This document shows positions 24,966-25,242 of a DNA stretch of 64,000 nucleotides, piece by piece (the stretch's first letter is position 1; every line of letters starts with the position of its first letter). The stretch is taken from positions 672,001-736,000 of the forward strand of contig OZ253496.1 in NCBI GenBank assembly GCA_965262115.1. The letters are read 5' to 3'. The notes under the pieces were generated by a model that worked only from the letters and a program-made list of their open reading frames with translations, was not told the origin of the DNA and did not search any database. The position numbers and the translations under genes were made by a program. Source of the stretch: Nitrospinales bacterium. GTDB lineage: Bacteria > Nitrospinota > Nitrospinia > Nitrospinales > VA-1.

Positions 24966-24994
24966 GTTGGCTAAGGAGGGAAAGAGGCAGGAAT

Positions 24995-25171
24995 TCAGGC
25001 CGCTAACGACGAAAAATGATCTTTCCGAACAGAGTCGTTGAGATCATTACTGAATTCCTTCTTGGCCCTCTCTCGATCATAGGCTTTTTTGTTATCCTGC
25101 CTTTTCACATGATAACGTTTGCTTTGCAGTTGTTTCACCACAAAGTCGACTGGCTTCTTTATGATCTTCAT
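24995..25171 (-). CDS. 58-aa basic protein, ArfA-like alternative ribosome-rescue factor candidate
   Basis: SD AAGGAGGT, own promoter; MKIIKKPVDFVVKQLQSKRYHVKRQDNKKAYDRERAKKEFSNDLNDSVRKDHFSSLAA. Absent from the ORF track (shorter than any ORF listed there). Confidence 0.6.
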   Translation of the reverse strand: MKIIKKPVDFVVKQLQSKRYHVKRQDNKKAYDRERAKKEFSNDLNDSVRKDHFSSLAA

Positions 25172-25213
25172 AAAGCACCTCCTTCTGGATTAATAAAATA
25201 AGGTTAAGTGTTG

Positions 25214-25242
25214 AGTATAAATCTGGAGAATTAGTTTGTCAA
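25214..25242 (-). promoter_or_regulatory. sigma70 promoter of the 58-aa gene
   Basis: TTGACA-17 nt-TATACT. Confidence 0.75.

Follow-up and report, generated by a model that had tools for sequence, protein, structure and literature searches.

Results

The 58-codon gene and its setting

The DNA analysed here is a 64,000-nt stretch of a Nitrospinales genome, referred to below as the window. On its minus strand, a 58-codon open reading frame (ORF) lies between a parDE toxin–antitoxin pair and a convergent, partly decayed moxR/DUF58 region. The initial annotation had described a consensus promoter, a strong Shine-Dalgarno (SD) site and a basic 58-aa product ending in SSLAA, and each of these is present as described. 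The promoter, TTGACA-17-TATACT (25242..25214, minus strand), agrees with the consensus at 11 of 12 positions, the SD AAGGAGG lies 6 nt upstream of the ATG, and the gene is monocistronic. The features assigned, in window coordinates, are as follows:

25237..25242, minus strand: predicted -35 box TTGACA (promoter scan; conserved in homologous loci)
25214..25219, minus strand: predicted -10 box TATACT (promoter scan; conserved in homologous loci)
25178..25184, minus strand: SD site AAGGAGG (sequence; SD-like word in 29 of 30 unique homologous loci)
24995..25171, minus strand: 58-aa ORF, P0001 (single copy in the genome; 51 homologues)
25049..25171, minus strand: conserved basic core, residues 1-41 (family alignment, ArfA alignment, structure prediction)
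25050..25059, minus strand: 5' arm of the conserved basal helix, codons 38-41 (KEFR; KEFS here) (perfect inverted repeat)
25041..25048, minus strand: 5' arm of the inner helix, AAUGAUCU (fold; register varies among subgroups)
25015..25022, minus strand: 3' arm of the inner helix, AGAUCAUU (fold)
24998..25006, minus strand: C-terminal Leu-Ala-Ala, predicted ssrA-like degron (protein ends and codon variation)
24989..24998, minus strand: 3' arm of the basal helix, with the stop codon and the start of the 3' UTR (perfect inverted repeat)
24976..24980, minus strand: 3' arm of the outer helix, pairing with 25066-25070 (present here, not conserved)

A homologue search returned 51 candidates, all of them true homologues with 68-98% identity, and all named ones are from Nitrospinota. 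Together with the 58-aa protein they make up the close-family profile A1 (52 members). Residues 1-41 are nearly invariant across these proteins, while the following tail (14-21 residues, encoded by codons that pair with the stop and the 3' UTR) differs in sequence and length, giving full lengths of 55, 58, 60 and 62 aa through in-frame changes only. A basic C-terminal segment is present after the core, as R33-x-x-x-K37-K38 and R41 are kept in at least 90% of A1. At the DNA level, 70 loci were reduced to 33 by removal of duplicates and 30 were analysed, the three excluded being one with an N and two with another tail type. Synonymous variation occurs all along the ORF in these loci, and TTGACA with a 17-nt spacer recurs 39-50 nt upstream of the start in 19 of the 30; the number of promoter-like sites in the 2.2 kb scanned (five, versus 2.9 ± 1.7 in shuffles) is uninformative alone.

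The 51 close homologues, the conserved core and the variable-length tail ending in xAA or AVA establish the 58-codon ORF as a real, conserved Nitrospinota gene. It had been called unannotated; the gene is real, but relatives are already listed as hypothetical proteins by NCBI/JGI, so it is not wholly unannotated. It is very improbable that the ORF is no functional protein gene and that the conserved element is a structured RNA or an intergenic terminator. A conserved stem and 3' UTR word would suit such an element, but frame, start, SD and promoter are all kept, lengths change only in frame and synonymous variation runs throughout. No Rfam family comes near its gathering score, the single match in the Rfam scan being judged a chance one, and the codon-level conservation already contradicts a non-protein element.

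In relatives, the gene mostly has an ABC-transporter-like pair on one side and convergent DUF58/moxR genes on the other (the ABC-transporter, MoxR, DUF58 and IS3 labels are readings of translations, not of a family scan). The parD-parE pair directly upstream here (window 25267-25838, minus strand, the same strand as the gene), with parE ending 25 nt upstream of the -35 box, is found upstream of the gene only here and in L001 among loci L001-L017. In L001 (3900-4000; G073, the closest relative) a deletion fuses the start of parE to the leader of the gene, taking out most of parE and the promoter, such that transcription of the gene would start at the parD promoter. A 13-nt inverted repeat (85%; 25229-25241 / 25256-25268) overlaps the -35 box and is a possible parDE operator or terminator. 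Downstream, 22139-24965 is decayed and contains broken-up frames of MoxR-like and DUF58-like type, together with an IS3-type element (23324-24464) and a fragment of the SLOG cluster-4 type (24504-24965).

A probable relationship to ArfA

The initial annotation had noted by eye a resemblance to the ArfA core, which it quoted in agreement with the E. coli record, and had proposed profile searches against ArfA, BrfA and ArfT. Direct searches gave no such kinship. Pfam, NCBIfam and PDB scans with the protein and its 51 relatives contained no ArfA, BrfA or DUF7230 match; none of the 52 family members exceeded the PF03889 cut-off (25.5 bits), neither P0001 nor any A1 member exceeded that of DUF7230 (PF23876, 27 bits; best relative 19.6 bits), and none of 42 further representatives matched PF03889 at E ≤ 0.1. 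Profiles A1, A3 and A4 found no ArfA in the PDB and A3 found none in E. coli, while the BrfA chains in the PDB were left unmatched by A1, A3, A4 and A7. Viral contigs scanned with A4 and with E. coli ArfA yielded nothing. The Pfam and NCBIfam scans gave no ArfT-like match, and ArfT was compared by description only. On A1, ArfA scored like its own shuffles, 3,472 of roughly 5,000 reaching its score, and the Atlas look-ups (0.90, corresponding to DUF7230, and 0.88) fell under the recognition threshold and were treated as leads only.

A signal emerged from a wider profile, A7, and for ArfA only. Starting from A1 and passing through A3, the family was widened through the phylum and a 50%-representative library (48 matches); five of 42 new matches were dropped as fragments, fusions or redundant long forms, and the resulting alignment of 45 proteins, all picked from profile matches, includes no ArfA. 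Searched against 177,635 PDB sequences, A7 gave six matches at E ≤ 10, all of them ArfA (E 0.12-0.26), with no bS21 or other ribosomal protein at that threshold. In the E. coli chromosome its single match was arfA (E 0.21; one candidate scored). These E-values are sub-significant taken alone. Residues 1-55 of ArfA score 15.5 bits on A7, equalled by one of 5,000 shuffles, and hhalign of A7 with enterobacterial ArfA gave an E-value of 0.0016 at a probability of 16%, the ArfA profile (A8) being shallow, as the ArfA homologue search yielded only near-identical enterobacterial proteins. A bridge is offered by gp30 of pelagiphage HTVC027P, which is named ArfA in print (PMC12753301): it is matched by an A7 member (E 0.9), and its scores are 19.9 bits with A7, 13.5 with the ArfA profile and 20.2 with PF03889, the last under the 25.5-bit cut-off.

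In the resulting alignment, core residues 9-33 correspond to ArfA 14-41, with ArfA L20, F25, Y39 and R41 falling on L15, Y20, Y31 and R33; within A7, conservation is highest at Y31 and R33. Structure prediction returned a single chain of two helices (helix 10-16, extended stretch 17-32, helix from 33; pLDDT 80, pTM 0.34), in which the first helix and the extended stretch coincide with the helix (15-24) and strand (27-30) described for ArfA (PMC8012679). Three ArfA hallmarks are missing. The small residue at A18, a position where substitution by Thr is described as abolishing ArfA function (PMC8012679), is replaced by Lys13; the KKGKGSY loop shows a three-residue GKG gap in all alignments, with KK and Y-x-R retained; and the KH motif of the ArfA/BrfA mRNA-channel tail is absent after Y31 in both P0001 and the A1 consensus. 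A complex prediction of residues 1-44 with RF2 of this genome scored 0.01; ArfA and RF2 reportedly bind the ribosome independently (PMC8874680). The register proposed by eye is thus recovered through the widened profile only, with the direct searches and the three missing hallmarks speaking against the resemblance. From these comparisons, the 58-aa protein is likely a remote homologue of ArfA; it is not a PF03889 member, since it lacks the small residue at A18, the GKG loop and the KH motif.

Compared with known rescue factors, the protein resembles ArfA (E. coli YhdL, PF03889, RF2-dependent) in size, in its basic core helix leading to an aromatic residue and Tyr-x-Arg in the same register, and in a poorly conserved tail encoded by an mRNA hairpin, long in ArfA, with an unstable full-length form expected (following the account in PMC8012679). 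The same account describes rescue systems of this type as species-specific. Besides the missing PF03889 match and hallmarks, it differs in its shorter N-terminus, in a tail that ends in an ssrA-like Ala-Ala where that of ArfA is hydrophobic, and in a hairpin that is weaker and contains the stop. BrfA (YqkK, Bacillus subtilis) is likewise a small basic factor with RNA structure near the end of its gene, and its short C-terminal helix before the basic end recalls the helix predicted here from residue 33, but BrfA has an in-frame intrinsic terminator, and the stem described here lacks a U run downstream on the sense strand. DUF7230, phrog_20887 and gp30 share the core pattern, with weak matches among relatives (6 of 42 for DUF7230, 18 of 45 for phrog_20887); the 58-aa protein matches neither family, and gp30 retains a KGRG loop that is absent here. 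ArfT of Francisella is also a small charged factor that recruits release factors, but PMC8874680 describes it as a charged helix built of repeats, and its gene as free of any RNase III site.

The missing A18, GKG and KH features would also fit a small basic ribosome- or RNA-binding protein of an ArfA/DUF7230-like superfamily that is unstable through its LAA end and has another job, such as hibernation, damping of translation under stress or action as a phage-derived effector. The nearest named families, DUF7230 (under threshold in the Atlas look-up and weak in the profile matches) and phrog_20887, are of unknown function, close relatives lie on phage-like contigs, and loss of the gene is patchy. 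In addition, 22 of the 52 members gave weak bS21 matches (best E 0.0048); bS21 identity was itself rejected on that weakness and on the lack of any A7 match to bS21 in the PDB. We nevertheless regard another job as unlikely, given that A7 picks ArfA alone from the PDB and that the hairpin-before-stop layout is presented as an ArfA/BrfA signature (PMC8012679).

An RNA stem over the stop codon

A long interrupted stem had been proposed to begin at about codon 34 and to span the stop, and all three helices quoted for it occur in the minimum-energy fold: the outer GAGGG/CCCUC (from codon 34), the basal AGGAAUUCAG/CUGAAUUCCU and the inner AAUGAUCU/AGAUCAUU. Only the basal helix, over the stop, is conserved in register across the family; the inner helix forms in 30 of 30 loci with a register that shifts between subgroups, and the outer helix is not conserved. 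The basal helix is a perfect 10-nt inverted repeat (25050-25059 / 24989-24998) in which codons 38-41 pair with the last Ala codon, the stop and five UTR bases. Across the 30 loci, 294 of 300 cells are paired, and slid registers pair at 26-54% versus 93% for the basal-helix register. Covariation is weak, with four double-change cells (matched by 18 of 500 shuffles) and other measures matched by 35-296 of 500; since the shuffle controls reached the observed values 18-296 times in 500, the support for the helix is conservation more than covariation. The helix contains 12 G-U cells versus four A-C cells, which favours the sense strand as the structured one. The R41 codon is AGG in 26 of 30 loci, and that of R19 is CGT in 27.

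Over a 141-nt stretch the region is no more stable than shuffles (z -1.23, 26/200), while an 83-nt core, narrowed after the stem had been seen, is more stable (z -3.27, 1/200). The same folding gave z -5.39 for the E. coli arfA hairpin, which is stronger than this stem. The stem of this genome folds as a three-way junction on a 10-bp base and is a poorer RNase III substrate than that of E. coli. A synonymous-recoding test gave a mean z of -2.45 for the hairpin region; it was rejected as a hairpin-specific signal, because a core control region was likewise negative (-0.65 to -4.86). The sense strand has no U run 3' of the stem, and no terminator was called there on the strand of the gene.

A conserved Ala-Ala end

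The ssrA-like LAA end noted initially proved to be a family trait. Among the C-termini of the 52 proteins, 39 are LAA, five AVA and three other xAA (47/52); the remaining five comprise one partial protein and four other ends. By way of background, 12 of 1,825 long ORFs in this genome end in AA and none in LAA. The last Ala codon is GCC or GCT, a restriction that follows from its pairing in the stem, and its first base is invariant though paired in only three of 30 loci. The penultimate residue is Ala through four codons (27 loci) or Val through three (three loci), and the third-last is Leu in 23 of 30 loci, again through four codons. The invariant, mostly unpaired first base and the use of several codons for Ala or Val indicate that the Ala-Ala end is conserved at the protein level.

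From its sequence, the SSLAA tail is a predicted ssrA-like ClpXP degron. An E. coli screen gives a ClpXP consensus ending in Leu-Ala-Ala, and its report adds that Ala-Ala alone is insufficient and that upstream polar residues weaken the degron (PMC10862746); the tail here reads SSLAA. A built-in Ala-Ala end may already be on record for some ArfA or BrfA. Full-length BrfA may also have a terminal Ala-Ala, and in that case this tail would be less novel.

Distribution and layouts across the phylum

The initial annotation's view of a lineage without a known back-up factor is borne out, as 120 Nitrospinota genomes contain, over cut-off, ArfA in none, ArfB in one and RqcH in five, with none of them in this genome (G000). 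Table 1 of a published survey shows no arfA, arfB or rqcH in its two Nitrospinae/Tectomicrobia genomes (PMC11633108), and the accounts given there and in reviews report ArfA only from some beta- and gammaproteobacteria. This genome has tmRNA (tag ANDYDVAVAA), SmpB, RNase III, ClpX, RF1 and RF2. Profile A3 finds the family in 53 of the 120 genomes at E ≤ 0.05, two of them weakly. Within its own genus, 15 of 22 genomes are without the gene. Some of these are 98% complete, and they also lack the known back-ups; this absence argues against a vital role.

Gene layouts were surveyed at 51 loci from 50 genomes (G056, G090 and G116 excluded), with a base-shuffle control of 30. A hairpin at or before the stop lies behind the core at 34 loci: 16 belong to this clade, 12 of them with z ≤ -2.5, and 18 distant ones have hairpins of 22-48 pairs that are unrelated in sequence, sit in the same place and in many cases lie entirely before the stop. 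Another 15 loci end 11-15 residues past the YxR motif without such a hairpin, and two have long hydrophobic tails and no hairpin. By analogy, varied hairpins behind one core, together with short forms ending near where a cut would leave the product, fit the ArfA/BrfA design.

Several relatives have features of their own. In a sister clade (L038-L044, L046, L047; genera g4, g5, g6 and g8) the proteins are 55-57 aa long, their basic N-terminus is longer, their end is short and acidic, and the hairpin is absent; they look pre-truncated and are possibly constitutive. Distant members (L045, L074-L083, L102-L110, L116, L117) carry very strong coding hairpins of 22-48 pairs and a core visibly nearer ArfA (L045 versus E. 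coli ArfA, pairwise E 5e-4). Five marine metagenome contigs (L139-L143; for example L140:1995-2174, plus strand) encode a 59-aa relative with a Nitrospina-type core (57-59% identity over residues 2-38) and no LAA tail; with small ORFs, a phage PD-(D/E)XK nuclease and SSB as neighbours, they are likely phage carrying a host-type gene. G008 has two superfamily members (L064 and L115), of which L064 also ranks third among DUF7230 matches across the phylum.

The two best PF03889 matches in the 120 genomes (E about 2e-4) do not belong to this family. One, L050:1438-1572 (plus strand), is a separate 45-aa ArfA-like ORF with a KKGRGSY loop that scores 25.3 bits on PF03889 (cut-off 25.5), in a genome (G013) that yielded no member of the present family. 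The second match, L051, seems to be a chance frame.

The stem and the layouts also bear on how the gene would be controlled. An ArfA-like rescue factor could be made full length and controlled by proteolysis alone, with the stem serving as a 3'-end stabiliser or as a terminator (conceivably that of the convergent moxR/DUF58 operon) and the LAA tail coupling its level to spare ClpXP capacity and not to tmRNA tagging. The stop lies inside the stem, which is interrupted here; the opposite strand has a U run after the basal helix, derived from the K37-K38 codons (AAA in 25 and AAG in 28 of 30 loci), and 11 of 17 loci have the end of a convergent gene no more than about 150 nt away. Moreover, the 15 short-tailed, hairpin-less loci mean that non-stop control is not universal, and ArfT, as described in PMC8874680, likewise does not come from a cut message. 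However, the G-U excess favours the sense strand, no terminator-like site was called at the stem on either strand, and the stem persists at three loci (L008, L011, L015) that showed no close convergent gene of at least 80 aa. With the 18 distant members also carrying long unrelated hairpins in the same place, often entirely before the stop, control by proteolysis alone seems rather improbable.

Discussion

We consider that the gene encodes a divergent ArfA-type back-up ribosome-rescue factor, held down both by the hairpin and by the Ala-Ala tail, and give this reading a probability of about 60%. The hairpin would leave most messages without a stop codon: RNase III would cut the stem to give a non-stop mRNA encoding roughly residues 1-41 to 1-48, and tmRNA and SmpB would tag the truncated product with ANDYDVAVAA for ClpXP. 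Any product of uncut mRNA would be removed through its own LAA end, which would take the place of the hydrophobic tail of ArfA. When trans-translation is overloaded, the truncated, untagged form would accumulate, bind the empty mRNA channel through its Lys/Arg-rich end and recruit a class 1 release factor, most likely RF2, via residues near Y20-Q25. Counted against this mechanism is the position of the stop inside the stem, so that termination past the stem would produce a complete message.

As a candidate function, this keeps the gene within a known kind of system, that of ArfA and BrfA, and the tail would be a compact case of one sequence under two constraints, those of an RNA hairpin and a protein degron. 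Our literature search turned up no account of this family or of DUF7230, and none of a rescue factor in Nitrospinota. Nitrospinota bacteria are major marine nitrite oxidisers, and the gene is a concrete candidate for back-up rescue in them. It also suggests that surveys miss a large ArfA-like superfamily and, if the protein is active without A18, GKG and KH, the minimal rescue peptide would be redefined.

More tentatively, and at somewhat less than even odds, ArfA may be the tip of a wider superfamily of release-factor-recruiting peptides without GKG and KH, present in Nitrospinota and marine phages, with a phage carrying the Nitrospina type. Within this one phylum the superfamily would be wired in three ways, with a hairpin and an ssrA-like degron, with a hairpin and an unrelated tail, or pre-truncated without a hairpin. 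If this is true, a phylum without ArfA or ArfB, and largely without RqcH, would have its missing back-up rescue system in this superfamily.
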